From the NCBI GenBank assembly GCA_965243025.1, contig CBDETY010000003.1:3488001-3552000 (forward strand): a DNA stretch of 64,000 nucleotides, read 5' to 3'. The position numbers and the translations under genes were made by a program. Source of the stretch: Candidatus Latescibacterota bacterium. GTDB lineage: Bacteria > Latescibacterota > UBA2968 > UBA8231. This document shows, piece after piece, positions 12,918 to 26,337 of the stretch (positions are counted from its first letter, which is position 1; each line of letters begins with the position of its first letter). The notes below the pieces were generated by a model that ran no database searches, had not been told where the DNA came from, and saw nothing but the letters and a program-made list of their open reading frames with translations.

Positions 12918-13060
12918 TCGGTACCCCTCCAGAATGGGCGATCCTAACTTCGAGAATGGACCTCTGCTGTCAACGCGCTGTGCGGTTATCGTCCAGACCT
13001 TGACACACGCCGAAACCTGGTCAATGCTTGGTCCCAAGTCTCAACAGATGGAGGAATCTC

Positions 13061-13912
13061 GTGATTGTAGGATCGGCACCATACCAGTACGAGCGGGTCG
13101 AAGGCTGGGGACGCGGGCCTGATGGGCGTGTCATGGGGGTGAACTCGGGAATAGCCGTTGATTCAGCGGACCGGGTTTACGCAGTCGACCGCGAACCCGA
13201 ACCGGCCATCGTGGTGTTCGACCGGGATGGTCGCTACCTGACCTCGTGGGGTGAGGACCTGTTTTCCCTCCCACACGAAATCTGGATCTCTTCCGACGAT
13301 CGCCTTTTCATACCGGATTGCCGCGATCACAGTGTGCGAATCTGCACAACCGAGGGGGAGGTGCTTCAAACAATTGGAACCCCGGGCAACTGCGGCGCAC
13401 CGGGCGAGCCATTCAACATGCCTACAAGGGCGGTTCAGGCTCCTTCTGGAGACATTTTCGTAAGCGACGGCTACGGACAGCAGTTCGTTCACTGCTTCAG
13501 CTCTGACGGAACCTGGAAGCACTCCTGGGGCGGAAAGGGGTCCCTGCCGGGCCAATTTACGCTGCCACACAATATTTTCGTCACCCCCGACCAAAGAGTC
13601 GCCGTTGCCGATCGCGAACCAAACAACCGCCTCCAGTTCTTTGACAGTGGCGGCGGTTTTCTGGAAAAATGGCCGGGGCGCCTGTTTCCCTGTGGGCTTT
13701 TTATCGATTCCGATGGTACCGTTTTCGTCGCCGAGGGCGGCGGCGTGAGCATCTTCAGTCTAGAGGGGGGGCTGATTTCGCAGTTTGTCGTAACCGGGGG
13801 ACCGGCCGATCGACTTCATGGGGCTCATTCCCTGTGGGTTGATCGTCATGGAGACCTCTATGTTGGTGAAGTCGGCGTGGAAAACCTGGTCTTCAAATTC
13901 ACCCGCGTTTGA
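13061..13912 (+). CDS. NHL-repeat beta-propeller (peptidyl-alpha-hydroxyglycine alpha-amidating lyase-like)
   Basis: GTG 13061 follows a GGAGGA RBS. Repeats are GIAVDSADRVY, FSLPHEI, FNMPT..GDIFVSDGYG, GQFTLPHNI..VADRE and HSLWVDRHGDLYVGEV. Confidence 0.85.
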   Translation: MIVGSAPYQYERVEGWGRGPDGRVMGVNSGIAVDSADRVYAVDREPEPAIVVFDRDGRYLTSWGEDLFSLPHEIWISSDDRLFIPDCRDHSVRICTTEGEVLQTIGTPGNCGAPGEPFNMPTRAVQAPSGDIFVSDGYGQQFVHCFSSDGTWKHSWGGKGSLPGQFTLPHNIFVTPDQRVAVADREPNNRLQFFDSGGGFLEKWPGRLFPCGLFIDSDGTVFVAEGGGVSIFSLEGGLISQFVVTGGPADRLHGAHSLWVDRHGDLYVGEVGVENLVFKFTRV

Positions 13913-13991
13913 TACCTGCGCATTCATACCGTATACCGGAAACAGAACCGACCGCACAAGGCATGGATCTTCCAGCTGCTCATCCGGACAC

Positions 13992-14030
13992 AAAAAAGCC
14001 CGGCGATCAAAAAAAAGACCGCCGGGCTTT
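13992..14030 (-). terminator. Intrinsic terminator closing the exbB/exbD/DUF4159 operon (probably bidirectional)
   Basis: AAAGCCCGGCG...CGCCGGGCTTT inverted repeat, followed on the minus strand by a T6 run. It lies about 20 bp past the stop at 14052. Confidence 0.8.
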
Positions 14031-14051
14031 CTATTCAGCCTGAGCTATTCC

Positions 14052-15383
14052 CTACTGGGTGTACTGAGTTACATTGGCGATGCCGCCAGGTTGGGTCAGC
14101 GCGTAAACTATCAGATTGACCCCGAACTGCAGGCCGCGCTCTCTCGCATCGGCGTTGGGGTCCCCCCAATACCAACTGATGTTCAGGTCACTGAAAACCA
14201 CCGCGACCCGACCTCGAAGTTCAAGCATTTCAAGGTCGAATACGTTTCCCCCTGGAGCCCCACCCATCGGGGGACCGTCCTCAAAATCGAAAAAGCTGTA
14301 GTAGAGATCATGGTCCTTCGGAATTTTCTGCCATTTGCTGCCATCGCTTCCGAGTACCACGGGGTCCGACATCAGCGCCTTGAATTGCCGGTCGAAAAGA
14401 GTCCCCTGAACGCCGGCATTTTTATTGTCAAGACCGGTTTCCGGATCGGCCTGACGGATCTCTTCTGCAAAAAGAAAACCGCCATTCTTCAGGTACTCAC
14501 CGAGGTTTTCCTTCTCCGTGTTGGTAAATTGAAATACCGCATTGTTACCGGTCAGATAGATAAATGGCGCTTTCATCACGGTGGGATCACTGAGCCGTAA
14601 AGTAGTACCTTCGATACGTGCATTCACACGCGAGTGGTCGCGTATATAACGCATCAATTCCTCTACGGCGGTCGGAAAGCGATCAACACTTTTGTCGGCC
14701 AGATCGTAGTCGACCACCGTCATGTTGAAAAAGCCTTTGATGTTTCGCTTGTTGTCCGGATCCTGAATGAGGATCGCTTGGAAACGACCAAAGTCGAGAT
14801 CTCCGACGTTCAGCAGTTCCTGCTTCAGGCTCATGGCTTCCTGTACTGGTGCTGCAGTTTCGGTCAACTCGATCATTTCGACCTGGTCGAAGGCGAGTTC
14901 CTCTGCTTTTGCTCCACTGAAAGCCCCCAGAACCTGAGTGCCGGGCAAAACCGCGCCAAGGAGATCGCTTCCCACTGAGCTGACATCGACGATTGCGGAA
15001 ATATCTTCAGGTGCTTGCATTGCCTGGGAGAGCAACATCTCCATCTGGACTTCAGATATTTCCGGCTGTTTCGCGAGATCGAAGTTTTTCTGCAAAATGG
15101 GAGGGGGAGCCTGGAAGTAGATCAACTTTTCTTCCTCTTCTACCACCGTAAGCTGCATGTAGTAGGCGACTCCCCAAGCTCCGGCGTGGACAATCACGGA
15201 TAGAATCAGGGCGGCATTCAGGCCCAGGCGGCGTCCCGTCGTAGCTTTCCATAGCGCCATCAGGAGTACTGCAAGGGCGGCCGCGCCCACGGCGAACGCG
15301 AACCATTTCGAGATGATGAGCAGCAGGTGAATCAGTACTGCTACCCCGAAAATCGCGTATAGCTGTTTTTTTCGTTCGTCCAA
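14052..15383 (-). CDS. DUF4159-domain protein with N-terminal TM helices (TonB/TolA-like SxxxH) and an acidic linker
   Basis: The C-terminal part has PFIYLTG..EKENLGEYLKNGGFLFAE..HDLYYSFFDF..GRVAVVFS..QFGVNLIVYALT, the DUF4159 pattern. The N-terminal TMs include LILSVIVHAGAW, followed by EEEEK..APPPIL. Confidence 0.8.
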   Translation of the reverse strand: MDERKKQLYAIFGVAVLIHLLLIISKWFAFAVGAAALAVLLMALWKATTGRRLGLNAALILSVIVHAGAWGVAYYMQLTVVEEEEKLIYFQAPPPILQKNFDLAKQPEISEVQMEMLLSQAMQAPEDISAIVDVSSVGSDLLGAVLPGTQVLGAFSGAKAEELAFDQVEMIELTETAAPVQEAMSLKQELLNVGDLDFGRFQAILIQDPDNKRNIKGFFNMTVVDYDLADKSVDRFPTAVEELMRYIRDHSRVNARIEGTTLRLSDPTVMKAPFIYLTGNNAVFQFTNTEKENLGEYLKNGGFLFAEEIRQADPETGLDNKNAGVQGTLFDRQFKALMSDPVVLGSDGSKWQKIPKDHDLYYSFFDFEDGPPMGGAPGGNVFDLEMLELRGRVAVVFSDLNISWYWGDPNADARERGLQFGVNLIVYALTQPGGIANVTQYTQ

Positions 15384-15436
15384 AGTAATTCAGTCCTCAG
15401 CTCGGTGTTTGGCTCCGGTTTGCTCTACTCAGACGA

Positions 15437-15856
15437 CTATTTCCCGCGTCCTCTCTGCGGCTCCGTCGCAATCACTTGATCGACAATGCCTACCTGTCTG
15501 GCAATATCCATGATCTGAACGATCTGGCCGTGGGTAGCCCGTTCGTCACCTTGGATAATGATCAAGGTGGTGTTATCCAGCAGAGTCCTCTTGGCCTGCA
15601 GTTCCTCTTTGAGATTGGCAAATGTAACGCTCTTGTGGTTGAGCTTCATATTGCCATCCTGATCGACTACAATGAAGAGGTTTTCCTTCTCGGGAGCCTG
15701 AGACTCCTCTGCCTCCGGCAACTTGATGTCCAGACCAGGGGTGATTGCGAACACCGCCGTTACCATGAAGAAGATGAGAAGCTGGAACACCACATCGATC
15801 ATCGGTGTGAGGTCGGGCTTCTCGTCCTGACTTCCACGCTTTTGGACGGCTGCCAT
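15437..15856 (-). CDS. exbD: Biopolymer transporter ExbD/TolR
   Basis: DLTPMIDVVFQLLIFFMV with the essential TM Asp, plus IKLPEA and IQGDERATHGQIVQIMD. Confidence 0.92.
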   Translation of the reverse strand: MAAVQKRGSQDEKPDLTPMIDVVFQLLIFFMVTAVFAITPGLDIKLPEAEESQAPEKENLFIVVDQDGNMKLNHKSVTFANLKEELQAKRTLLDNTTLIIIQGDERATHGQIVQIMDIARQVGIVDQVIATEPQRGRGK

Positions 15857-15902
15857 CTTTCCTTGTCCCTCCCTACCTGATTATGAATGCAAGAATGCCC
15901 GC

Positions 15903-16556
15903 TCAGGCAGCTTGCGAGGACTGCCAACGACGAAGCAACGCGTCGACGAAGCCGTGTCCGTAAGCTTCGAACTGGACGTACCTGCTGTCGGCACGAGTGC
16001 TGAAGTAGGTGTAAATGGCGATCGAGGGCACGGCAATTACCAAGCCGGTAACCGTGGTGATCAGCGCTTCTGATATACCCGCTGCAACGATGGTCGGCTC
16101 ACCGAGACCCTTTTCCGCAATTCCCTCAAATGCCCGGATCATTCCGTTCACCGTTCCAAGCAATCCCAGCAGCACCACGGAGTTTGCAACGAACTGAATA
16201 ACCGACAAGTAGCGCTCCAGATAGCCAAGGGCGGCGCGCTCGACGGTACCGTTCATTTCCGCTCGCATTTCTTCCATTGTGCGCTGTTCTCTCGAAAGGT
16301 GCTCGAAGCGCTCGATACCTTCCAGGAAAACCTCACCTTCCAGCTTGCCCACCTCGCCGCAGTGCTCCCGCAACTGATCGAAACTAGTCCCCGAATCAAT
16401 TCGGGTATTCATGTCGTTGGTTGCCTCAGCCAGCTCTTCTTCGCTACGCATCCGCGAATACGTCCAAATCCTTTCAAGGAAGAACCCCACAGCCATAATC
16501 GACCAAAGGCCCAGCGGATACATGAAAGGTCCACCATCGCGAAAGAAATCTAACAT
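15903..16556 (-). CDS. exbB: MotA/TolQ/ExbB proton channel protein
   Basis: GGPFMYPL, LLGLLGTVNGMIRAF and GISEALITTVTGLVIAVP. It is adjacent to exbD. Confidence 0.92.
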   Translation of the reverse strand: MLDFFRDGGPFMYPLGLWSIMAVGFFLERIWTYSRMRSEEELAEATNDMNTRIDSGTSFDQLREHCGEVGKLEGEVFLEGIERFEHLSREQRTMEEMRAEMNGTVERAALGYLERYLSVIQFVANSVVLLGLLGTVNGMIRAFEGIAEKGLGEPTIVAAGISEALITTVTGLVIAVPSIAIYTYFSTRADSRYVQFEAYGHGFVDALLRRWQSSQAA

Positions 16557-16595
16557 GTGCTACAATCCTCCCTGTTAGAGCTGCAGGCTGGAAAG

Positions 16596-19500
16596 CTATA
16601 TGACGCGAGCTTCTTCCAGAGCTTGCAGCTGCTGCTTTGAAAAATCAACTTGAGGTGAGAATCTCGCCGCTTCGCTATACTTTTCCACCACTGTTTTGAA
16701 AACGTCCGCTGCCTTTCGATAGTCTTCCTGGGCCATGTAAGCGGCACCGATGTTGACGGCCGCGTTCACGGCTTGATCGCTTTCCGGATACTTATCCAGA
16801 ACCTGCTGGAAAATCTGGATTGCCTCAACATACTGTTCCTTGTCGAACAGCTTCTCCCCTTCCGCGTAGACGTTGTAAGCGTCGATCTCCGAGAGGTGAC
16901 CGAGAAGGACTGTTGCTTTTCGACGCAACTTCTTGTCTTCGTCCTTCTTCAGACGGTCATCGGGATAAATCTCCAGAAACCTCTGGTAACTCTCGGTCGC
17001 TTTATCGTAGACTTTCTCACTGTAGTAGAAATCGCCGAGCGTGAACTGACTTTTTGGACCGTAGTAACCGTCGGGATGTTTGTCCACGATCCGTTCGAAT
17101 ATCGGCAAGGCCTCTTCCTTTCGGCCCAAATGAATCAGAGCCCACGCCTTGTTGTAGAGGGCGTCATCCACGTATTCCGATCTCGAATACCGACTCAGGA
17201 CGCGGTCGTATTTCCCCATCGCTTCTGAAAAGATCTTGTTCTTTTCCTCCCTCATCAGACCTTGGGCCAGGTTGAAAACCGCTTCTCCTGACCGGAACAG
17301 AGCTTCCGGGGCAAAGCGGGACGTTGGATAGCTCTTGGCCAGCTGATCGAATGCAGTGCTCGCTTCACGCCATTTCCCCATGCGGTAACTCGCCCAGGCA
17401 TCGTAGTAGTGAGCGTATACCGCTTTCTCATCGTCCGGATAAGTCTGGTGGTATTTCCGGAAGGCTTCCACCATCAAAGGAAGGTACTGGACGTTGCCCC
17501 CTCCTGACAGTGAGTTATAGGCCACACCAATCTGGAACTGAGCATTCCTGGCCCAGCCAATTTGAGGATAATTGTCGATGATGGTTTGGTATGTGGCGAT
17601 CGCCTGCTCGAGGTTTCCCGAGCGGAAAAAGCTGTTTGCCTGCACGAACAGCGCATTTGAAATGCTTTCGACATCGACGGCAAGATCGATGAGCTGTTGT
17701 GATGCCTGGATGCTACGATCGTATTGCTCCAATCTGAAATACGCGCTTGCCAGACGGATCAGCACACGCACCTTGTCTTCTTCGGATTGCAGCTTCTCCA
17801 GCATGTTTTCATAGGTGCGTATCGCATCTTGCGGATCTTGTTTCTCAGCCATCGAAATCAGCTGCAGTTGAGCATTGCGCGCCAGCGTCTCATCTCCTGA
17901 ATCGATGACCTTGTTCAGCAGTTCAGTGGCTTCGTCATCCTTGCCTTGAGCAGACAACGAGAGCGCCATGGAGAACTCCACCTTCAGAACCATTGTTTCC
18001 GGAAGGTCGGATTCAAGAAGCCACATGTAGTCCGCGACTGCGTTGGTGTATCGATTGGCGTAATGATAGGCAAGGCCGCGGCCATAATGTGCATCCCGTA
18101 CGACCCCGGCTTCCGGGTATTCCTCGATTACCTTCGTGTACCTTGAAATGGCGTCGACGTAGTTTTTGTTGTTCAGGTCCAACTGGGCGATCTGGTAGTG
18201 AGCGGTGGCTTCGAGATCGCGATCTCCGCTAACTCCCGCCAACAACTCGCTCAGAAGTTCTTTGCCCTGCTCCGGCCGCCCTTCTCCGATATGGATATTT
18301 GCCGCTTCGACCAACGATGCAACGTATACTTCTCGCGCTTTCCGTCCCACCCGCGAAAAAGCTGCAATAGCTTCCTCAAGTCTCCCAGCTTGTTTATAGA
18401 GGATCCCCAAGCCATAATTCCCGTCTGCCGCATGTTTTGTGTCACCGTAGTTTTCAGCGATCGTCTCATAGGCTGAAATTGCTTCCTCAAAGCGCTGTTG
18501 CTCGGTGTTTACCCGCCCGATTCGCAACAGACATAGCGGTGCCTGATTGGATCTCGGAAAACTCTCGACGACCTCTGTATAAAGGCTCTGAGCCTCTTCA
18601 TAATCCCCCAGTTTTTCCGACGACCATCCTGCACTGTAGAGCGCCTGAGCGCGAAGCGAAGTTTCGCTGTCGGGGTAATTCTGCGTCACGAGCCGGTATT
18701 CGGTGCGAGCCTCCTCGTAACTCCCAGCGAAGTAACGCGCTTCTCCCTTCTGATACTGGGCGTTGGCTGGATAAGGGGTATCGCCATAAAGGGTGATCAC
18801 CTGGTTGTAAGTGTTCCAGGCATCGTCAAAGCGCTCCCATTCCATATAGTTATCGCCAAGGCGCATCTGCACTTTTGCCTTGTAGAACCGTTCCTCCGCT
18901 GTTTCCTGAGCGGAAATCAACTCTCTATAGGCTTCCTCGAATTCTCCCTGTTTTCGGTAGATTTCAGCAACCCGCAAGGATGACGTTTCAAACAACTGCC
19001 TGTAATTTTCAAAATCGACATTCTTGCCTTCGCGAAAAGACCCACGGAGCAATTCGTACATTCGGTCGTACAAATCACGCACCTCTCGATACGCTTCAAT
19101 CGCTTCGTTCGGCCGATCCATCTCGTCAAATGCCTGTGCTTTCAAGTATGTCGCTGAAGCAATTACAGGACTTAGCGGATAGCGGTCGAGTACAGCCTGA
19201 GCTTCGTCCACCGAGCGCTGGTACTCAGCTTTTTCATAGTAACAGGAAGCGATGCGAAACTGAGAGTCCGGGGCATACCGGTCCTCGGGATACCTCTCCA
19301 GCATGCTTGTCAGGGTAGTGATGGACTGATCATAGGACTCGAGGTTGAACTCGCTCCAACCGGCGTAGAACAGAGACTCTCCAGCCAATTTCGAGTCGGG
19401 AAACATCTCGACATAGCGCTTGTACTCATCTGCGGCCTTGTCGAATTCTTTCTGGAGGAAACGAGTTTCCGCAACACGGAATTGGACGAGCTGTCTGAAA

Positions 19501-19847
19501 TCTTCTGCTACTCCTGTCTGCTCGGTAACCTGGTGGAAGGCGTCAACAGCCTTTTCATGTGAGCCGCTTCGCATGTGAGCGTTACCGAGCTGATACCAGG
19601 CGGCTGCCAGTATCGGCAACTCCAGTTCATCTCCGAAACTTACAACTACACTGTCGGTTCGAACCGCCCGGCTGTTGAACTTGACGATCTTGCTGTACTC
19701 GATTATCGCGCCTTCGTACTCGCCGAGGGCATATAGTGATTGGCCCGCGTCGAATTTTGTTTTCAGGCTCTGAGGAACGGGTAGGAAGAGGCTAGTTCCC
19801 ACTCCGAGCCCCAAGACGATCAGTCCCAACCAAACCGTCATGACCAA
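16596..19847 (-). CDS. Very large tetratricopeptide-repeat protein with an N-terminal membrane anchor/signal
   Basis: 1083 aa. A hydrophobic N-terminus (VWLGLIVLGLGVGTSLFL) precedes many CpoB/BamD-like TPR units of the form YPxSxxAxxAx[YF]xxG. RBS AAGGAG upstream; the start may be ATG 19841. Confidence 0.9.
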   Translation of the reverse strand: MVMTVWLGLIVLGLGVGTSLFLPVPQSLKTKFDAGQSLYALGEYEGAIIEYSKIVKFNSRAVRTDSVVVSFGDELELPILAAAWYQLGNAHMRSGSHEKAVDAFHQVTEQTGVAEDFRQLVQFRVAETRFLQKEFDKAADEYKRYVEMFPDSKLAGESLFYAGWSEFNLESYDQSITTLTSMLERYPEDRYAPDSQFRIASCYYEKAEYQRSVDEAQAVLDRYPLSPVIASATYLKAQAFDEMDRPNEAIEAYREVRDLYDRMYELLRGSFREGKNVDFENYRQLFETSSLRVAEIYRKQGEFEEAYRELISAQETAEERFYKAKVQMRLGDNYMEWERFDDAWNTYNQVITLYGDTPYPANAQYQKGEARYFAGSYEEARTEYRLVTQNYPDSETSLRAQALYSAGWSSEKLGDYEEAQSLYTEVVESFPRSNQAPLCLLRIGRVNTEQQRFEEAISAYETIAENYGDTKHAADGNYGLGILYKQAGRLEEAIAAFSRVGRKAREVYVASLVEAANIHIGEGRPEQGKELLSELLAGVSGDRDLEATAHYQIAQLDLNNKNYVDAISRYTKVIEEYPEAGVVRDAHYGRGLAYHYANRYTNAVADYMWLLESDLPETMVLKVEFSMALSLSAQGKDDEATELLNKVIDSGDETLARNAQLQLISMAEKQDPQDAIRTYENMLEKLQSEEDKVRVLIRLASAYFRLEQYDRSIQASQQLIDLAVDVESISNALFVQANSFFRSGNLEQAIATYQTIIDNYPQIGWARNAQFQIGVAYNSLSGGGNVQYLPLMVEAFRKYHQTYPDDEKAVYAHYYDAWASYRMGKWREASTAFDQLAKSYPTSRFAPEALFRSGEAVFNLAQGLMREEKNKIFSEAMGKYDRVLSRYSRSEYVDDALYNKAWALIHLGRKEEALPIFERIVDKHPDGYYGPKSQFTLGDFYYSEKVYDKATESYQRFLEIYPDDRLKKDEDKKLRRKATVLLGHLSEIDAYNVYAEGEKLFDKEQYVEAIQIFQQVLDKYPESDQAVNAAVNIGAAYMAQEDYRKAADVFKTVVEKYSEAARFSPQVDFSKQQLQALEEARVI

Positions 19848-19893
19848 AACTCCTTGCCGGTTGTTCTACGCACAGAAGAAATGGGGTTAGGGG

Positions 19894-20829
19894 TTACAGC
19901 TTGTAAGAAATGGAGAAGCGGTGCGACCCATTGGTTTCGGTCAGGTCGAGCGGGATATGGTAGCCGTAGTCGAACAGCATTTTGTTCCACTGGTACCCGA
20001 GACCGGCATTGAGATCCCCACTGACATCCTCCTCAAGAACCCGGCTACCTCCGGCTCGCAACATCAGCCCTTCAACCAGGACGGTTTCGCCGCCGAGCAC
20101 CAGGCTCCTCTCAGTTTCCCCACCCAGATCGCGCATGACCCACTGGACCGAAACCATTGAGGTTTCCGCCACTGGGGCGGCTATCCCGACGTGCACATCC
20201 ATAGGCAACTTTCCGGCATCAGGATCGCCCGGAACGGATGTCTTTGCCACGTTCGGTTGGTTCAGGTTCTTCAACAGCACCCCCAGATTCGCCCCCCGCA
20301 ACGGCGACTTCCACAGCACGCCGATATCGACGCCCGGGGCTCCATTGCTGGTGTTCGACAGCGGATCAGCTCCCATAACCGGGTCGTCTGGAATGTCCCC
20401 GACGCTCCAGAACAGGTACTTCGCGGTCAAACCCAGGGACAAATTGCGGTTCAGTTGGTAAGAAAGGCCGAAGAATGCCCCGTTCTCACTCATCAGATCG
20501 GAGCCAATACGTTCATAGCCCAGACCCAGAGCCAGCTTTTCCCCCATAGGCTGGACAAAACTGGAGATGTGCTGCCCCAGATTGTCGCCGTCAATCCCGC
20601 CGAACAGCAGAGACACGTTGGTGTAGGCCAACTGACGGCTCTCGACCTGGGTCAGCCCCGCGGGGTTGGCGAATACCGCGTCGCCGTTGTCCGCTACCGC
20701 CGCAAAAGCGTTGCCCAGCGATGCCGAGCGTGCTCCCGCGCCGATATTCTGGATGTTCACAACTGCGTGCGCTGTGGTCGCCAAGGCCGTTATGGCGCTG
20801 GCGATTGCGAAAAAACGCCCTGCCTTCAT
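19894..20829 (-). CDS. PorV/PorQ/UPF0164 (FadL-like) outer-membrane beta-barrel
   Basis: Signal peptide, then GAGARSASLGNAFAAVADNGDAVFANPAGL. Further strands VDIGVLW, GVLLKNL, LRAG and FDYGY, ending in HRFSISYKL. Confidence 0.8.
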   Translation of the reverse strand: MKAGRFFAIASAITALATTAHAVVNIQNIGAGARSASLGNAFAAVADNGDAVFANPAGLTQVESRQLAYTNVSLLFGGIDGDNLGQHISSFVQPMGEKLALGLGYERIGSDLMSENGAFFGLSYQLNRNLSLGLTAKYLFWSVGDIPDDPVMGADPLSNTSNGAPGVDIGVLWKSPLRGANLGVLLKNLNQPNVAKTSVPGDPDAGKLPMDVHVGIAAPVAETSMVSVQWVMRDLGGETERSLVLGGETVLVEGLMLRAGGSRVLEEDVSGDLNAGLGYQWNKMLFDYGYHIPLDLTETNGSHRFSISYKL

Positions 20830-20859
20830 GAGCTCGATCCTCCTTGTGGTATTTCCCTG

Positions 20860-21639
20860 TTACTTGCTCGCAGTCTCGATTACAGGCTCGGCATCGCCGT
20901 ACCTGCGCCCGATGTCTCGTTCAAAACCGTAGGTGATATCGACCGCCTCGACCGGTTCATTCCGGTAGTCGAACCTCAGAACGCAATCGTGAACGATGAC
21001 ATTTATCTCGCGAACATCCGGGTGAAGTGCAGGAAAGATTACGAATCCTTCCTTCTCCTGTCCGCTGAAGATCTCTTCGTTCTTGAACATGGTGCGGTTC
21101 AGCAGATCCATCCGCTCCTGGTAACGGTTGTACTCATTACCGCGATACCCGATAGCATAGGCTCGGTAGTAGGTGTCCATCTGCTGTTTCCCGAGACTCC
21201 AGTACTCCCGGTTGTTCGATGCGACGAGCTGAACCCTTGCGGGATCAATCTTCACCTTCGGATAGGCGTAATTCTTGACGCTGAGGCGAAACACCGTAAA
21301 CCGGGTTCGCTCCTGCTCCCCTTCCCAGAACTTGGTATTCCCGTAGGTGTAGGGATTGGTGGACTTCGGTCCCGAATTCGAATGGGAAGCAAACTGCCGG
21401 TTGAGTTCCTCGTCGGTCATGGGGCGAAGCCTGACCTCGAGGCGATCCTGCGTGAAGGTGATACTGCCGTCGTCAGCGACACTCATCGCGCTCTGCTGGC
21501 TTTCGGCAGGTCGCAAGGGTGTGGCGTAGTGATAGTATCCACATGCCACCAAACCCACCGAAACGAGAGCAATTGCTGCGGAGTTAAGGAAGCGGGTTTT
21601 TTGCCGTGCTTTCGGTCCCAAATCCGGTCTCGCGAACAT
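20860..21639 (-). CDS. Hypothetical lipoprotein
   Basis: Lipobox GLVA-C, a beta-rich Ig-like body (FTVFRLSVKN, GQEKEGFVIF) and an upstream GGGAG RBS. Confidence 0.7.
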   Translation of the reverse strand: MFARPDLGPKARQKTRFLNSAAIALVSVGLVACGYYHYATPLRPAESQQSAMSVADDGSITFTQDRLEVRLRPMTDEELNRQFASHSNSGPKSTNPYTYGNTKFWEGEQERTRFTVFRLSVKNYAYPKVKIDPARVQLVASNNREYWSLGKQQMDTYYRAYAIGYRGNEYNRYQERMDLLNRTMFKNEEIFSGQEKEGFVIFPALHPDVREINVIVHDCVLRFDYRNEPVEAVDITYGFERDIGRRYGDAEPVIETASK

Positions 21640-21766
21640 GATCGAACGGACTCCCTAGTTGAGATCCTGTGCCTGCCCGGAGCCGATTTCCACGGTGCCC
21701 CGGGTTGTCCGAGATAAATACGAAAGAACCTTCAGCCGATGCAACTCCGCCGTAAGATAGTTCATT

Positions 21767-22687
21767 TCACGGGCGGATGGAAGCTTTTATTTGACCCCAC
21801 GACTTATCCACAATTGCGGTTTCTGCGGCCCCGCCGAGACCAACCAACTCAAGGTCGCTGAACCTCTCGGACAGCCGGAAGGCATTGTGCCCGCCACTCA
21901 GAGACCACTTGGCGTCGTAGAGTTCGGAGTGGGTGTCGAAATCGTTGAACTCCGCGTTGAATCCGAGCACCTCCCCTTCGCGTAAGTCGTGTTCCACACT
22001 GAGGAAAGAAGCTCCGACATCGATCCTGTCAAATGGGGTCAGCGCCAGTTCATAGGCGACGACCCCGGGGCTTGTCACAACCACCGCGGCCTTGGTGAAC
22101 TCCCCATCCGGTTCTGAATACCACCCCGCAGCCGAGAAATTGACGAAAAAATCGCCATCCGGGGGCGGGGGGCCGGACAGGATGAAGTGGTTTGCCTCAG
22201 TGCCGTTCAGACGCAACTGCTCCTCCTCGCTCAACTCCGAAAAATCCGCGAATTGACCGCCCGAATGATCGGCATCCAGGAAAATCTCCAGATCGTCGTC
22301 CTGGAATATCAGAGCCGGAGGGGTCCCCTCGGGACGATCAACCTGATGCACATCATCCACGACCACTGCACTTATATATAATTGATTAGAAGCGTCGTTC
22401 CAACCTACGCAGAGTGTGGTTCGGAAATCTGAGGGGTCCACCACAGCCCCGCTGACAAGATCTGTAAGCTGTTCTGTTGACACGCAAAAGTCGGAATCCA
22501 CAATTCCCCAATCCGACAGGTCGCCGTCGACCACAGGTATGAGATGGTCGGAAAAGTGAAATGCCCGCATGCTGACTCCGGGAGGTTGGTGAGCAATCGC
22601 CACCGAAACGGCTTCAGGTGTGCAGACCGCAACCGTAACCAAGGCAAGAAAACTCATCGCCGGCTTGCGGGTTTCAGCATCGACCAA
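21767..22687 (-). CDS. Secreted CBM9/DOMON-like sugar-binding-fold protein with a C-terminal SWGQIK tail
   Basis: Signal-like N-terminus, then PVVDGDLSDW, GWNDASNQLYISAVVVDD, DDLEIFLDAD, YELAL and LGFNAEFND. It ends ETAIVDKSWGQIKASIRP. Confidence 0.75.
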   Translation of the reverse strand: MVDAETRKPAMSFLALVTVAVCTPEAVSVAIAHQPPGVSMRAFHFSDHLIPVVDGDLSDWGIVDSDFCVSTEQLTDLVSGAVVDPSDFRTTLCVGWNDASNQLYISAVVVDDVHQVDRPEGTPPALIFQDDDLEIFLDADHSGGQFADFSELSEEEQLRLNGTEANHFILSGPPPPDGDFFVNFSAAGWYSEPDGEFTKAAVVVTSPGVVAYELALTPFDRIDVGASFLSVEHDLREGEVLGFNAEFNDFDTHSELYDAKWSLSGGHNAFRLSERFSDLELVGLGGAAETAIVDKSWGQIKASIRP

Positions 22688-22692
22688 GGACT

Positions 22693-23556
22693 CTATTCTT
22701 TCTCCTCCGTCCCGGAAACACCCTCATCCTGCATCTCGCCGCTCTCGTCGTGGAAGCGAATCAGCTTGATGTCGTGCAGTCCGATTCCGAAATCCCCGGT
22801 GCCGGACCTGCCGGAAAAGGCCGAGCCCACTCGCTTCTCGTAAATGCGGTTGGTTTCTCCGGCCAATCGCACGGTGCTGGCATCGACCGTGCCCTGGGTG
22901 GTGCGCCCGGTGCGGAATGTGACGGTCACGGTCCGGGATTCGGTTCCGGCTGCGGCCTTCGCGAAATCGAGCCGGCTTATCCTTGCCATCTCCTTTGAGC
23001 GCATTTTCAAACCCTGGAAATACTCGAACCGCCGCTTTCCGCGAAATCGGAGGTTGGAGACTTCGAAGCGTTCACCCGCCTCGTTGATGACCGTGGCCTT
23101 GAGTTCGACCTGAGGCCGGGCGGGGTCGGAGTGATGGAACAGTACGTCGCTGACCTCCGACATCAGGATCAGAAAAGGGCCGAGTTCCGTGACCCCACCA
23201 AAACGCTGCATCACGGAACCCCCGCCGAAACTGTCCTGATGAGGGGAGCTTCCGCTGCCGCCGGAAAAAACGGTGGCGTTGACCACTTCACCGGTTCGCA
23301 GGGTCACGGCAACCTGTTGCTCTTCGTCGTTCTTGTCGCCTTGCATTGTCAGCCGGTCGAGATCCTGCATTTTGAGGATGCGACGATGGTTGCCTACGTA
23401 GATCTCTATATCGTCGCCGCCCTGGTATGTGAGCCTGGAAACTTCGTGGCGGTTTCCGGCTCGATCCACGACGGTGGCTACGATGTCGGACTGTTGCGCT
23501 TCGACTGAACAAACAGCCGCCCCCGAGATTGCGATCAGTGCGGAAAGGATCTTCAT
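22693..23556 (-). CDS. Secreted hypothetical protein with two internal repeats
   Basis: Signal peptide VEA-Q. Repeat 1 is ATVVDRAGNRHEVSRLTYQG...VTLRTG...VSDVLFH; repeat 2 is ATVINEAGERFEVSNLRFRG...VTFRTG...IKLIRFH. Confidence 0.7.
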   Translation of the reverse strand: MKILSALIAISGAAVCSVEAQQSDIVATVVDRAGNRHEVSRLTYQGGDDIEIYVGNHRRILKMQDLDRLTMQGDKNDEEQQVAVTLRTGEVVNATVFSGGSGSSPHQDSFGGGSVMQRFGGVTELGPFLILMSEVSDVLFHHSDPARPQVELKATVINEAGERFEVSNLRFRGKRRFEYFQGLKMRSKEMARISRLDFAKAAAGTESRTVTVTFRTGRTTQGTVDASTVRLAGETNRIYEKRVGSAFSGRSGTGDFGIGLHDIKLIRFHDESGEMQDEGVSGTEEKE

Positions 23557-23621
23557 GGTTTATTCTCTGGCAAGTTGCGCTGATTCTGTTTCAGCATCCC
23601 CGTCATGACAATCGGTGCGGG

Positions 23622-24296
23622 CTACTCGATTCCGCCCTCCTCCTCGAGCTGCTGCGACTCGGTTTCGATGTTTATGTGAGTTATTCCGCCGTAGGTTACC
23701 TCTACCGGCCGGAACTCGTCGAGTCCGCTCGGTGAATTTTCGATACGCACCTTGTACGACCTTCCCGCCGGGACTATGAAATAACGAATCTCGGAGGAGG
23801 TCATTCCCTTGCCCAGAACAGTACGCATGTTGTAGTCCATGATGAGGAAGGGGATCTGTCGCCCCAAGTCCTCACCTCCGGTGAACCTGACAGAGAATCG
23901 CCCGAGGTTGACGGGGACATACTTCTCCTCTCCCAATCCGATTTCGACGTTCCGAATCTCCACATTGTCGTCGATGTCGGTATTGACGACGACCGTGTAG
24001 AGTCCCGGCGGAATATCGCACATCAACCGGAATTCCTGAGCACCCATCTCGTAATAAGCCGGGGAACTCGCCGAAAGACGGGGTGTATCGGAATACACCT
24101 CTTCATCGGTGTCCTGATCGATGACGTAGAAATTCAACTCGTTGATACCGCCAGCATCCAGAATAAGTCTACCCATCCCCTCCGGAATCGGTGCAGGACC
24201 ACCTCCCCCTCCGGAAGTAGTCGCACACCCGGTTGCGAGCAGGCAGCAGACGAGCAGTTGTAAAGCTATACGGTGAATTTCTCTTGATTTTGCCAC
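23622..24296 (-). CDS. Hypothetical lipoprotein (tandem beta-sandwich, carboxypeptidase-regulatory/PEGA-like)
   Basis: Lipobox LATG-C followed by a Gly/Pro tether. The motifs PPGLYTVVV and PAGRSYKVRI suggest two beta-sandwich units. GAAGGAG RBS upstream. Confidence 0.7.
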   Translation of the reverse strand: MAKSREIHRIALQLLVCCLLATGCATTSGGGGGPAPIPEGMGRLILDAGGINELNFYVIDQDTDEEVYSDTPRLSASSPAYYEMGAQEFRLMCDIPPGLYTVVVNTDIDDNVEIRNVEIGLGEEKYVPVNLGRFSVRFTGGEDLGRQIPFLIMDYNMRTVLGKGMTSSEIRYFIVPAGRSYKVRIENSPSGLDEFRPVEVTYGGITHINIETESQQLEEEGGIE

Positions 24297-24737
24297 GAGA
24301 CCTTGCTCCTTCCATCTGGCTTGAAATCCGGCAGACTACCTGAGAACTTGACGAGCCGATGTATCACTGTCAACGCTGGCCTGGTCCGACCGCTTCAGAA
24401 GGATCTTCCTGACGGCGAACATGCCCTCCCGTGGGGACCGTCGGCAGGGTTGGACGACAATGCGGGTCTTCAACGTCGTCGAAGAGAGGGACGATGCTGT
24501 TGTGGTCAGATTTCGACCTCGAGCCCACCAGTTGGAGAGTTGAGGGAATGATGGACCGTCTGTTCCGGGGGGCCATACCGAGTCCCCTGTTGGGTGTGTC
24601 TTGGCGCCGGTGTTGGAGCCTCACCCTCCTACCCGACCATGTACGGATACGAAGAGGGCTGTTTCCCGCGCAAAGCCCTCGGTGTCTGCTGCCGGAAACC
24701 CCGGATCACCCTGTCGAGCACCGTCCCACGCCTGTCT

Positions 24738-24775
24738 GAGGTTCTGCACCTATTTAGAGGTTCTGCACCTATTTA
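24738..24775. repeat. Perfect 19-bp tandem duplication (GAGGTTCTGCACCTATTTA x2)
   Basis: The copies are at 24738-24756 and 24757-24775. The second copy contains the stop codon of the 24773..25255 gene. Confidence 0.9.
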
Positions 24776-25255
24776 ATTGAATAGGTCTTTGACCTTCCCC
24801 CAAGTGGTGACGTCGACTTCTGTACCGATCGGTGGAGTTGGGGAGAGTCGGTGAATCGTCGCCTCGAAATCATCTCCCGAGACGGTTGTTGTTCCGCCGT
24901 TCTCCTTTACCAGAAGGAGGCTGCCGCGGTGCCCGGACCGAAACCAGTCTTCTGCCAACTCTGAAACGGACTGGTCTTGCTGCAGGAAATCATCGACGGA
25001 GAATATCTCGAAACCGAGCCGACCCAGCCCCGGAGAGCGGATATCTCCCGTATCCACTACCCCGAAAACCCGGATCTCCTCGATCTCGGCGGTCGCCCGT
25101 TCCAGATCCTGTGCCCTGCGTAACTGTTCATGTGAGTCGGGATCGAACAAGAGGAATAACTGGACGAATCCCGGATTTTGGGCTTCGGCGCCTGGGATGG
25201 CCAAGCCCAAGGCAAGGGCGACCATGACAGCTTTGTGAAAACAGGTGCGTCTCAT
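24773..25255 (-). CDS. Small secreted hypothetical protein with a C-terminal TTWGKVK tail
   Basis: Signal peptide AEA-Q and an alpha/beta body that may be a Cys-less thioredoxin-like fold. It ends PPIGTEVDVTTWGKVKDLFN. ATGA overlap with the upstream gene. Confidence 0.7.
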   Translation of the reverse strand: MRRTCFHKAVMVALALGLAIPGAEAQNPGFVQLFLLFDPDSHEQLRRAQDLERATAEIEEIRVFGVVDTGDIRSPGLGRLGFEIFSVDDFLQQDQSVSELAEDWFRSGHRGSLLLVKENGGTTTVSGDDFEATIHRLSPTPPIGTEVDVTTWGKVKDLFN

Positions 25256-26337
25256 TCAGCCCTGATCGTGAACGCCGGCTCGATTTCTCCCTGACCCTCC
25301 AGGATATTGACCTGTGACAGGTGGTCGTTGAGCACCTGTCCGACCTGGATCACCCCCACTCGCCTTGGCACGGCATATCCGAGGACCGCGTCGGTTTGTG
25401 GATCGCGAAGCTCGCGCCCCAGATCCCAGACCCCGAACTTGTCCCCGTTCCGGACCCCGTCCGCGGAGCCGACGTTAATATAAGCGCGGCCGGCATCGAT
25501 ATCTATGATTTTCGGCTCGGATACACTCAGCTCGGGGGCAGGGCGAACAACCGCTTCGACTCCCATGCCCAGTTGTTGCAGGCACTCGCCCACGGACTGC
25601 CCTACCAGGGTTTTGTGGAACTCCGGCGAACCCCATTCCGCTTCCCCCAGAAAGAAATACTCCCTGTCCATGGGAACATGTGCGGCCGGGTTGACGATAC
25701 CAGTGCGCTTGCTGTCGATCTGTCCCTCACATCGATACTCACCTGCAGGCTGGCCGTCGATGGCATTGTAGAAGAAGAGCTTTATCTCCGTAATTCCCTG
25801 ATAGCTCCTGTATCCACCCAGGGGAACAGTGGCGCGAAACCTTTTCATGCTGATGTCTCCGATTTCGCCGAGGACAACGACATCGGCTTCCAGCTGTCGT
25901 CCCAGATGTACGGCCTTGCCCGACTCGATTTTCCCGAGCCGCTCTTTTTTTCCGAGCCGCACGAACCCCGAATCCGGTGGAATGATTCGATAGGCATTGT
26001 AACGTCCCAGGGTATCGGCCAGTCCGCGGGCGAGCTGCCCGTAAATGTCCCAAGGCCCCTTGTATTTCGACAGATCGCGAAACGGTAGAATCAGGAGAAC
26101 CTTCTTGAGGGCATCTATGCTGTCTTTCTCAGTGACTGAGGATTTCACCGTCTCTTCGGCGGGTGCCGGCCGCGGGGAAGCGGCCGGTTCGGCCGTCGCT
26201 GATTCGGCGGCTTCCTGGTCTTGGGAAACGGTTCCACCGATCGATGCCAGATGAGAGCATCCCGTGCCGATGGCAATCAGCAAAGCCATGCCGGCAAAAG
26301 AGAGGGAACACCGCAGTTTCTGTTTCGAAATCACCAT
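25252..26337 (-). CDS. Lipoprotein with a CsgG/TolB-N-like alpha/beta domain and a FlgT C-terminal-like beta domain
   Basis: Lipobox GTG-C, then VLLILPFRD...AVHLGRQLEADVVVLGEI (CsgG/FlgT middle-domain pattern). The C-terminal part reads AYINVGSADGVRNGDKFGV..ELRDPQT..VLG. Confidence 0.7.
   Translation of the reverse strand: MVISKQKLRCSLSFAGMALLIAIGTGCSHLASIGGTVSQDQEAAESATAEPAASPRPAPAEETVKSSVTEKDSIDALKKVLLILPFRDLSKYKGPWDIYGQLARGLADTLGRYNAYRIIPPDSGFVRLGKKERLGKIESGKAVHLGRQLEADVVVLGEIGDISMKRFRATVPLGGYRSYQGITEIKLFFYNAIDGQPAGEYRCEGQIDSKRTGIVNPAAHVPMDREYFFLGEAEWGSPEFHKTLVGQSVGECLQQLGMGVEAVVRPAPELSVSEPKIIDIDAGRAYINVGSADGVRNGDKFGVWDLGRELRDPQTDAVLGYAVPRRVGVIQVGQVLNDHLSQVNILEGQGEIEPAFTIRAE

Follow-up and report, generated by a model that had tools for sequence, protein, structure and literature searches.

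Which function does a domain of unknown function serve when its gene takes the place behind exbB and exbD in which tonB or tolA normally lies? This question is raised by a membrane-anchored DUF4159 gene in a stretch of 64,000 nucleotides from a Candidatus Latescibacterota bacterium (assembly GCA_965243025.1, contig CBDETY010000003.1, positions 3,488,001 to 3,552,000), which is called the window in the following. The initial annotation, made from the letters of the window, had placed this gene directly after exbD and had proposed that DUF4159 acts as the head of a new class of energy transducer. The position was confirmed, as the gene begins 53 nucleotides downstream of exbD on the same strand. 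The interpretation was supported in part, since for the orthologous lineage none of the three refuting outcomes named in the annotation arose. In our view, the protein is probably (about 0.6) a force transducer with the role of TonB or TolA, namely the third subunit of a 5:2 proton motor of the TolQ/TolR type. Until 2025, to our knowledge, no heads other than those of TonB and TolA were known to link 5:2 proton motors to the outer membrane. If the proposal is true, the widespread domain of unknown function DUF4159 gains its first testable role.

Linkage of the DUF4159 gene to the motor genes

Related loci were scanned with one genome per species, which yielded 47 loci. In 46 of them, the DUF4159 gene is immediately preceded by an exbD gene, corresponding to 46/46 testable loci; the remaining one (L054) starts at a contig end. 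Judged from these 46 of 47 loci, the arrangement of exbD and the DUF4159 gene exceeds chance. Moreover, exbB was found in 45/47 and the gene for a tetratricopeptide repeat (TPR) protein in 41/47 loci, with every miss at a contig end, and the order TPR-exbB-exbD-DUF4159 is kept wherever the contig extends that far. The linkage to exbBD expected by the initial annotation thus holds for the orthologous lineage, but not for DUF4159 genes in general (1/15 in the source genome). The genes of the conserved block in the window are as follows:

14052..15383, minus strand: membrane-anchored DUF4159 gene (proposed transducer), 443 amino acids, TTG start; PF13709 E 1.2e-27
15437..15856, minus strand: exbD/tolR-like gene, 139 amino acids; PF02472 E 2.5e-29; transmembrane Asp21 (D21) invariant in 26 sequences
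15903..16556, minus strand: exbB/tolQ-like gene, 217 amino acids; PF01618 E 5.3e-25
16596..19847, minus strand: gene for a 1083-residue TPR protein; hydrophobic leader at the N-terminus, repeats like those of YbgF/CpoB and BamD; Pfam TPR families
19894..20829, minus strand: gene for an outer-membrane beta-barrel of the PorV/FadL type, 311 amino acids; NF033709 PorV_fam E 3.5e-20
20860..21639, minus strand: gene for a 259-residue lipoprotein of no known family, without Pfam or NCBIfam match
21767..22687, minus strand: gene for a secreted, CBM9-like protein of 306 residues; upstream end of the block; PF06452 E 7.5e-8

Among the NCBIfam models, the motor is best described by TolQ (E 4.8e-23, 82.1 bits, cut-off 221) and TolR (E 6e-19, 68.9 bits, cut-off 127.3), both matches being below the cut-off. 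The TPR protein is matched in 10 stretches by the NCBIfam model TIGR02795 tol_pal_ybgF (E 3e-97). The barrel reaches 72.8 bits with NF033709, which is below the cut-off of 90, and matches PF11751 at its cut-off. Its model has 14 strands at a mean predicted local distance difference test score (pLDDT) of 66, and Foldseek ranks highest the FadL homologue 3dwo together with chains 8gl6_F and 6h3i_F of the type 9 secretion complex (E around 1e-8). Of the 30 loci whose contigs extend to this position, 28 have a barrel gene; in L053 and L057 it was not found with the barrel of the window as the query. The 259-residue lipoprotein was detected in 9/47 loci by tblastn and the CBM9-like gene is syntenic in 9 loci. 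It was also observed that the mature barrel protein starts with VVNIQN-x-GAGARS (residues 22-43, window 20700-20765), which is almost invariant in the orthologues and is modelled with a pLDDT under 50.

The linkage to a motor is also seen where the motor genes differ. In L045, L046, L048 and L056, exbB and exbD are only 24-31% identical to those of the window and two exbD genes are present, with the DUF4159 gene (61-70% identical) still behind them. In these four loci, the motor was exchanged while the linkage was kept. Moreover, a search for the linker region in a sample of 61 genomes of the phylum gave a match in 34 of them and a strong match (E 1e-20 or better) in 17, and all but one of the strong matches cover the whole linker. 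By family, the strong matches fall into f1 (own genome and 4/5), f5 (1/2), f8 (5/6), f10 (2/3), f11 (1/1) and f12 (3/3). No match to the linker region was obtained in f2 (0/16), f3 (0/3), f7 (0/5) and f13 (0/1), the genomes of which are mostly over 90% complete. In 5 genomes without an orthologue, the best match to the ExbD of the window is only 28-39% identical, suggesting that the motor and transducer lineages are absent together. Comparative genomics thus shows that the DUF4159 gene is co-inherited with exbB-exbD and the giant TPR gene across the phylum.

The DUF4159 gene is probably also co-transcribed with exbB-exbD and the TPR gene. In a related strain, exbD and the DUF4159 gene are joined on contigs from RNA libraries (two runs, a single study), and one of these contigs extends into exbB, which gives a weak hint of co-transcription. 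In the RNA-library runs X16-X19, the part of the gene from about 14840 to 15120 is uncovered; such a contig gap proves nothing. On the minus strand, a run of genes for secreted, lipo- or membrane proteins extends from about 26.3 kb to 14.05 kb. The gene that lies 3' of the DUF4159 gene is convergent (13028-13912, plus strand) and therefore the DUF4159 gene closes the operon.

Anchor, linker and DUF4159 head

The structure of the 443-residue protein was modelled by AlphaFold2 with 142 relatives as input (mean pLDDT 80.8). The segments of the protein and their positions in the window are as follows:

15312..15377, minus strand: helix 1 (residues 3-24, AlphaFold2) with G13-x-A15-x3-H19, containing AVLIHLLL
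15243..15308, minus strand: helix 2 (residues 26-47, AlphaFold2), followed by the cytoplasmic loop KATTGRRL
15159..15230, minus strand: helix 3 (residues 52-75, AlphaFold2) with S62-x3-H66, containing SVIVHAGA
15024..15128, minus strand: post-anchor region (residues 86-120) with the hydrophobic KLIYFQA before PPP, then PPPILxKNFDLAKxPEISEVQMEML
14832..15023, minus strand: acidic part of the linker (residues 121-184), predicted to be disordered, conserved in sequence
14064..14831, minus strand: globular part (residues 185-440), comprising the DUF4159 domain and a conserved extension at its N-terminus (LDxGRFQAILIQDP), pLDDT above 90

The two His-bearing stretches that had been assigned to transmembrane helices, AVLIHLLL and SVIVHAGA, are indeed found in helix 1 and helix 3, respectively. 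The protein is located in the inner membrane and its C-terminal 370 residues face the periplasm. There are three K+R in residues 1-8, three K+R and no D+E in the loop between helices 2 and 3, and the run EEEE after helix 3. Because of the K/R residues before helix 1 and in this loop and the Glu run after helix 3, the positive-inside charge pattern predicts an N-terminus inside the cell and a periplasmic DUF4159 domain, as the initial annotation had expected. Short DUF4159 relatives have signal-peptide-like leaders, which fits this topology. A start at Met42, which would yield a one-helix protein and corresponds to 402-residue entries in some gene calls, was rejected because helices 1 and 2 are conserved in 117/120 orthologues. 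Furthermore, the frame is open up to the TTG codon, and GAGGA is present 10 nucleotides before this codon.

The homology search returned 316 homologues, and the best 120 of these, with an identity of 71% or more across 91% or more of the length, were aligned for the conservation counts of the three-helix form. In helix 1, His19 is present in 117/117 sequences covering this position, and Ala15 and Gly13 are each present in 114/120. The residues T48, G50 and R52 of the cytoplasmic loop after helix 2 are invariant. At the two motif positions of helix 3, His occurs in 106 sequences (Glu in 10, Leu in 4) and Ser in 76 (Ala in 44). Distant orthologues that are 48-70% identical possess one helix only (L045, L046, L048, L051-L054, L056 and L057, as well as P0121, P0127, P0133, P0134 and P0152). 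Helix 1 is not present in these proteins and their anchor reads S-x3-H in 9/9 loci. Since S-x3-H occurs in every single-helix orthologue, the TonB/TolA-type motif is ancestral. Conservation of Ser and His was thus borne out for the single-helix loci and for His19, but only in part for helix 3. Moreover, phmmer alignments of relatives with about 400-430 amino acids begin at query residues 40-90 or so. The alignments indicate that helix 3 is the homologue of the single S-x3-H anchor in the distant orthologues and in the paralogue family. The two extra N-terminal helices, which had been called atypical and include the second His-bearing helix, are a later, lineage-specific addition, in which helix 1 holds the invariant His.

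The same plan recurs in the anchored paralogues, which consist of a cytoplasmic RFxxPSxxLxL motif, an (S/A)-x3-H anchor, the sequence KPLTTxFVKRxPRLTKPLELKKRP, a variable stretch, the sequence LDTGxYxAMVIQDP and the DUF4159 domain. The post-anchor sequence of the paralogues aligns without gaps to LIxFQAPPPILxKNFDLAKxP of the window protein. Among 1.84 billion representative proteins, 889 relatives of the window protein were found at E up to 1e-3. In the 150 representatives listed, 38 match the post-anchor motif and 35 of these 38 have a His upstream of it (10 S-x3-H, 19 A-x3-H, 6 other). In the source genome, the anchor helix contains a His in 13/13 anchored DUF4159 proteins.

The region between anchor and head had been described as an acidic, Pro-containing, low-complexity linker of roughly 100 residues. 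Its composition agrees with this description (residues 77-184: 19 D+E, 4 K+R, 7 P), but its conservation does not agree with low complexity. The sequence PPPILxKNFDLAKxPEISEVQMEML is identical in 120/120 orthologues except for the two x positions, Leu97 (116/120) and Leu117 (119/120); the identical stretches comprise residues 93-96, 99-105 and 107-116. Further along the linker, many positions show no variation among 20 aligned sequences. In the AlphaFold2 model, residues 76-120 form a moderately confident stretch with one short helix, and disorder is predicted for residues 121-180 or so (pLDDT under 50). The linker is therefore a conserved region rather than a low-complexity spacer, and it probably binds a partner. 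By analogy, we infer that residues 86-120 are an attachment region like the motor box or the D-box. A conserved hydrophobic stretch lies before PPP at the position of the TonB D-box, although it does not fully reproduce the published D-box pattern.

The assignment of the head to DUF4159 was correct. PF13709 is the sole Pfam match of the protein at E up to 0.01 and scores 97.2 bits against a cut-off of 25.9 for residues 223-429, covering profile positions 4-202 of 202. The NCBIfam search with the 443-residue protein gave no match. The closest solved structure is 4i66 (Foldseek E 2.6e-10, TM-score 0.83 on the target), which VIA superposes with Z 22.3 and a root-mean-square deviation of 2.0 over 188 aligned residues at 26% identity (sequence E 7.3e-6). 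After 4i66, the nearest folds in VIA are class I glutamine amidotransferases (Z 8-9.5), ThuA-like proteins (Z 8.3) and the GIFT domain of IFT52 (Z 8.3-8.4); the resemblance to IFT52 GIFT/GldG and ThuA-like folds is also seen with Foldseek (E 6e-3). No vWA, TonB_C or TolA structure appears among the 50 best VIA matches or in the Foldseek list obtained with the whole-protein model, which excludes nothing. Pfam detects no TonB_C domain (PF03544) in the protein at E up to 0.01; this domain is present elsewhere in the genome. In the alignment of 142 family members, G217, Y297, G301, G302, H358, F367, P372, R392, W406, N423 and A428 are near-invariant and no Cys is among the near-invariant positions. 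The model thus points to a class-I-glutamine-amidotransferase-like fold that lacks a conserved Cys nucleophile, which makes an amidotransferase activity unlikely.

Known transducers, the proposed mechanism and its alternatives

Recently, a "new class of force transducers" with a vWA head has been described, the genes of which follow TPR-tolQ-tolR (Williams-Jones 2025, Mol Biol Evol, PMC12204202). According to the article text, these proteins of unknown function have a single-pass, SHLS-type His anchor. A motor box lies within their disordered stretch, domain II comprises about 100 residues, and the globular head has no relation to those of TonB and TolA; the motor box is described as general to TonB and TolA (PMC12204202). 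The chassis of anchor, linker and non-TonB head is the same in the window protein, whose gene lies downstream of TPR-exbB-exbD. However, the head of the window protein has DUF4159 as its only Pfam family and superposes on 4i66, and it is probably not of the vWA fold. The locus also differs from those described in the article text in having two extra N-terminal helices, one tolR-like gene and a larger paralogue family. The DUF4159 form would thus be of the same kind as the vWA class but differ in its head, in the phylum and in the far greater number of its paralogues. The proposal of a new class is therefore partly pre-empted by the vWA-headed proteins (PMC12204202), but no DUF4159-headed form was found in the main article texts searched on novel transducers and motors. 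The terms 'DUF', 'amidotransferase', 'Latescibacter' and 'Gemmatimonad' are absent from the main text of PMC12204202, the supplements of which may contain DUF4159-type loci. Full-text searches for DUF4159/PF13709 returned only the 2015 Pfam database paper, and the text covered of a survey of motors names only other DUFs (mBio 2025, PMC12505986). As far as the article text goes, the vWA class showed that the anchor-and-linker chassis takes other heads (PMC12204202), and DUF4159 would be a further one.

The window protein shares with TonB the S-x3-H anchor, a conserved post-membrane segment, a long flexible periplasmic linker and the position of the gene after exbB-exbD. In contrast to TonB, it has no TonB_C domain, its linker is acidic rather than Pro/Lys/Glu-rich and no TonB-dependent receptor is encoded in the operon. 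Indeed, none of the 29 Plug-domain genes of the source genome is located within 15 kb of a DUF4159 gene, and the genome has a separate canonical exbB-exbD-exbD-tonB locus. The likeness to the TolA system comprises the S-x3-H anchor, the motor that fits TolQ/TolR best (below the cut-offs) and the co-encoded CpoB/YbgF-like TPR protein, whereas the TolA C-terminal domain is missing and the outer-membrane component of the operon is a PorV/FadL-type barrel. The source genome (96% complete) contains no TolB_N match, and its only OmpA-domain (Pal-like) gene, at C3:1798188, is far from every ExbD gene. Because of the missing TolB_N match, the remote OmpA-domain gene and the TolQ/TolR-like motor, a Tol-like role in envelope maintenance or with surface proteins seems more likely than TonB-box-dependent import. 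The locus thus points to an uncharacterised envelope machine with a PorV-type barrel, a giant TPR protein and lipoproteins in an uncultured phylum in which no canonical Tol-Pal system was found. The head itself has the same domain fold as Hoch_4089 from Haliangium ochraceum (PDB 4i66), a solved DUF4159 protein of unknown function. However, the chain of 4i66 has 200-209 residues and is thus domain-sized, with no room for an anchor or a linker; the window protein adds an N-terminal strand/helix extension, the linker and the anchor. In the IFT52/GldG GIFT domain and in ThuA-like proteins, the flavodoxin-like, class-I-amidotransferase-like fold serves as a non-catalytic or binding module, as proposed for the DUF4159 head; here the likeness is at the level of the fold only, with middling scores, and no sequence family link was detected.

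By analogy with the solved Ton and Tol complexes, a His-bearing anchor helix would dock at the outer face of the ExbB pentamer. For the one-helix form, which is ancestral, this would be helix 3 with its S-x3-H motif, and in the three-helix form it may be helix 1. The invariant post-membrane segment could be held by the periplasmic dimer of ExbD like the motor box or the D-box of TonB, which is a short Pro-flanked strand just after the anchor that is captured by the ExbD dimer (Loll 2024, PMC10907165, article text). Proton flow would then move the anchor and pull on the acidic linker of about 100 residues, and the DUF4159 domain, as a putative non-catalytic class-I-amidotransferase-like binding module, would pass the pull to a partner associated with the outer membrane, the gene of which would belong to the same operon. 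The PorV/FadL-type barrel, the TPR protein and the 259-residue lipoprotein are candidates. For the TPR protein, the binding site may be the disordered, conserved linker, in analogy to CpoB and TolA. A transducer-binding box would be expected to look like an exposed, conserved strand at the N-terminus, and it is pure speculation that the first residues of the mature barrel are such a box.

Several observations weigh against a force transducer. The Ser and His of helix 3 are incompletely conserved (76/120 and 106/120), the post-anchor stretch fits the published D-box pattern inexactly, and the acidic linker, with only 7/108 Pro residues, is unlike the Pro-rich rod of TonB. The coupling to ExbB/ExbD is deduced from comparative genomics, and force delivery to an outer-membrane partner is proposed by analogy. 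The RNA-library contigs prove no single transcript and may contain DNA. Moreover, most anchored DUF4159 genes are unlinked to a motor (12/13 in the source genome; none of 16 DUF4159 matches in G003 and none of 5 in G060), the motor-linked paralogue of the type 2 locus in G055 has an anchor without His, and fusions of DUF4159 to extracytoplasmic function (ECF) sigma factor domains suggest that some members of the family are sensors and not force transducers. Among tonB paralogues, many orphans share few motors, and their known distribution, with one or two genes linked to a motor beside many orphans, is also that of the DUF4159 paralogues.

The fusions to ECF sigma factor domains lead to an explanation that we regard as unlikely, although it is the least improbable of the alternatives. 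Like an anti-sigma factor or BlaR1, the window protein could be anchored in the membrane and sense or signal from the periplasm, being linked to the motor by co-transcription only; DUF4159 would then bind a ligand or a protein and pass a signal across the inner membrane, and no force would be transmitted. In addition to the ECF sigma factor fusions (P0137, P0140, P0171), DUF4159 is fused to the BlaR1 peptidase M56 (P0218, P0267, P0269); in both kinds of fusion it occupies the periplasmic end, which is also what the binding module proposed for the transducer would be expected to do. The conserved cytoplasmic RFxxPSxxLxL motif of the paralogues and their scarce linkage to motors would fit a sensor as well. 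However, with about 8 cytoplasmic residues before helix 1 and a loop of 8 residues, the window protein has no output domain, the operon encodes no sigma factor or regulator, and the adjacency to exbD in 46/46 loci survives the replacement of the motor genes. This synteny would equally be expected of a motor accessory that stops short of the outer membrane, for instance a stator anchor bound to peptidoglycan or to the TPR protein, an assembly factor or a regulator that positions ExbBD. The 1083-residue TPR protein is always encoded alongside, and the disordered but conserved linker could serve as a peptide to which TPR repeats bind; the survey text describes only a compact peptidoglycan-binding fold for non-flagellar B subunits (PMC12505986). 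Yet Pfam and NCBIfam reveal no peptidoglycan-binding family in the window protein, and the available article texts treat the S-x3-H anchor and the post-anchor motif as hallmarks of moving transducers rather than of stator anchors (PMC12204202, PMC10907165). Thus, we rate the accessory slightly lower than the sensor.

It is very improbable that the head is a membrane-tethered periplasmic hydrolase or amidotransferase-like enzyme whose link to the operon reflects a shared pathway only. The fold neighbours after 4i66, class I glutamine amidotransferases (Z 8-9.5) and ThuA-like proteins (Z 8.3), would permit an enzyme, and H358, R392, N423 and Y297, which are polar and near-invariant, are candidates for a site. 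However, the amidotransferase nucleophile is not conserved, as no Cys is near-invariant among the 142 sequences, the non-catalytic GIFT domain of IFT52 fits equally well (Z 8.3-8.4) and neither Pfam nor NCBIfam assigns an enzyme family.

The wider DUF4159 family and the genomic setting

The source genome contains 15 DUF4159 matches, of which one is canonical and secreted, one is secreted and belongs to the subfamily of the window protein and 13 are membrane-anchored; the gene in the window is the only one (1/15) near an ExbD gene. In five other genomes, 1/6, 1/12, 1/14, 0/16 (G003) and 0/5 (G060) of the DUF4159 matches lie within 1.5 kb of an ExbD match. The motor-linked DUF4159 proteins of G006, G012 and G055 belong to a second, paralogous anchored lineage. 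In G006 and G012, this second locus type encodes a protein of about 900 residues, a TPR protein of about 1100 residues, DUF5683, a small lipoprotein, exbB, exbD, exbD, DUF4159 and a relative of the 259-residue lipoprotein. In G055, the DUF4159 gene precedes exbB-exbD-exbD by 1.8 kb. The copy of the second locus in the source genome (L060) has no motor genes, and a TPR-exbB-exbD-exbD-lipoprotein locus is found elsewhere in this genome (L073).

In parts of the phylum, there are 5-42 DUF4159 matches per genome, and most of the matches read in such expanded-family genomes bear a TonB-like His anchor. These large paralogue expansions suggest a modular system with many heads and few motors. It is a tentative, rather doubtful extension of the transducer proposal that, in parts of the Latescibacterota, DUF4159-headed proteins form an expanded transducer family driven by the proton motive force that shares few TolQR-type motors, the operon in the window replacing Tol-Pal and pulling on a PorV/FadL-type barrel and a CpoB-like giant TPR scaffold. 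On this extension, the first function of DUF4159 would be that of a head which delivers force towards the outer membrane. The largest number, 42 matches, was observed in G001, and 19 genomes of the class of the window (families f2 and f3) have only 1-2. In G006, a tandem array contains eight DUF4159 genes within 21 kb (C5:77818-98448). Two nearly identical anchored DUF4159 proteins of 593 residues with a C-terminal extension of about 170 residues are encoded in G000 (C3:4222684-4224462 and 6380896-6382674), and two MotA_ExbB matches at C3:844457 and C3:2425967 have identical scores; both pairs suggest large recent duplications in the genome. Furthermore, P0199 carries a CarboxypepD_reg domain ahead of DUF4159.

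In the ESM Atlas, the clusters found are DUF4159 clusters only, and their commonest labels are Latescibacterota and Gemmatimonadota. The taxon labels on the relatives read Candidatus Latescibacterota, with some metagenome-assembled genomes labelled Gemmatimonadota. Among 10 cluster representatives that were checked, P0134 is the sole one labelled Latescibacterota, the others being almost without names or taxa. The source genome has a size of 6.8 Mb in 3 contigs and is 6% contaminated. The stretch in the window was found in metagenome runs of sponge and marine origin. For window 13900-16700, four runs labelled sponge metagenome contain more than 40% of the sampled words, and related strains (90-99% alike) occur in sponge metatranscriptome libraries.

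The envelope operon (window 14000-26000) has a G+C content of 52-59%, compared with 62-68% on both flanks, which could be caused by transfer within the phylum or by a constraint on composition. Its proteins are highly conserved across genera; for instance, ExbD is 81-87% identical in most loci. A Zorya-like reading of the operon was dropped because PADLOC assigned no defence-system family to six operon proteins. The 259-residue-type lipoprotein family, for which no Pfam or NCBIfam model exists, was observed at window 20860-21639, L073:8645-9412, L059:5741-7033, L075:10321-11514 and L076:10034-11227. It adjoins exbBD and anchored DUF4159 genes in several locus types, and its members share a stretch like R-x-MTDEELNR-x-F ... 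NPYTYG ... RFTVF ... Y-x-KV. Finally, the source genome encodes three proteins of 1539-1669 residues with Peptidase_M28 and FtsX-like permease domains (L059:279-5285, L069:482-5098 and L074:2049-7025). Two of these giants lie beside anchored DUF4159 paralogues, and one is divergent from an exbD-exbD pair, which is followed by type 9 secretion cargo genes.

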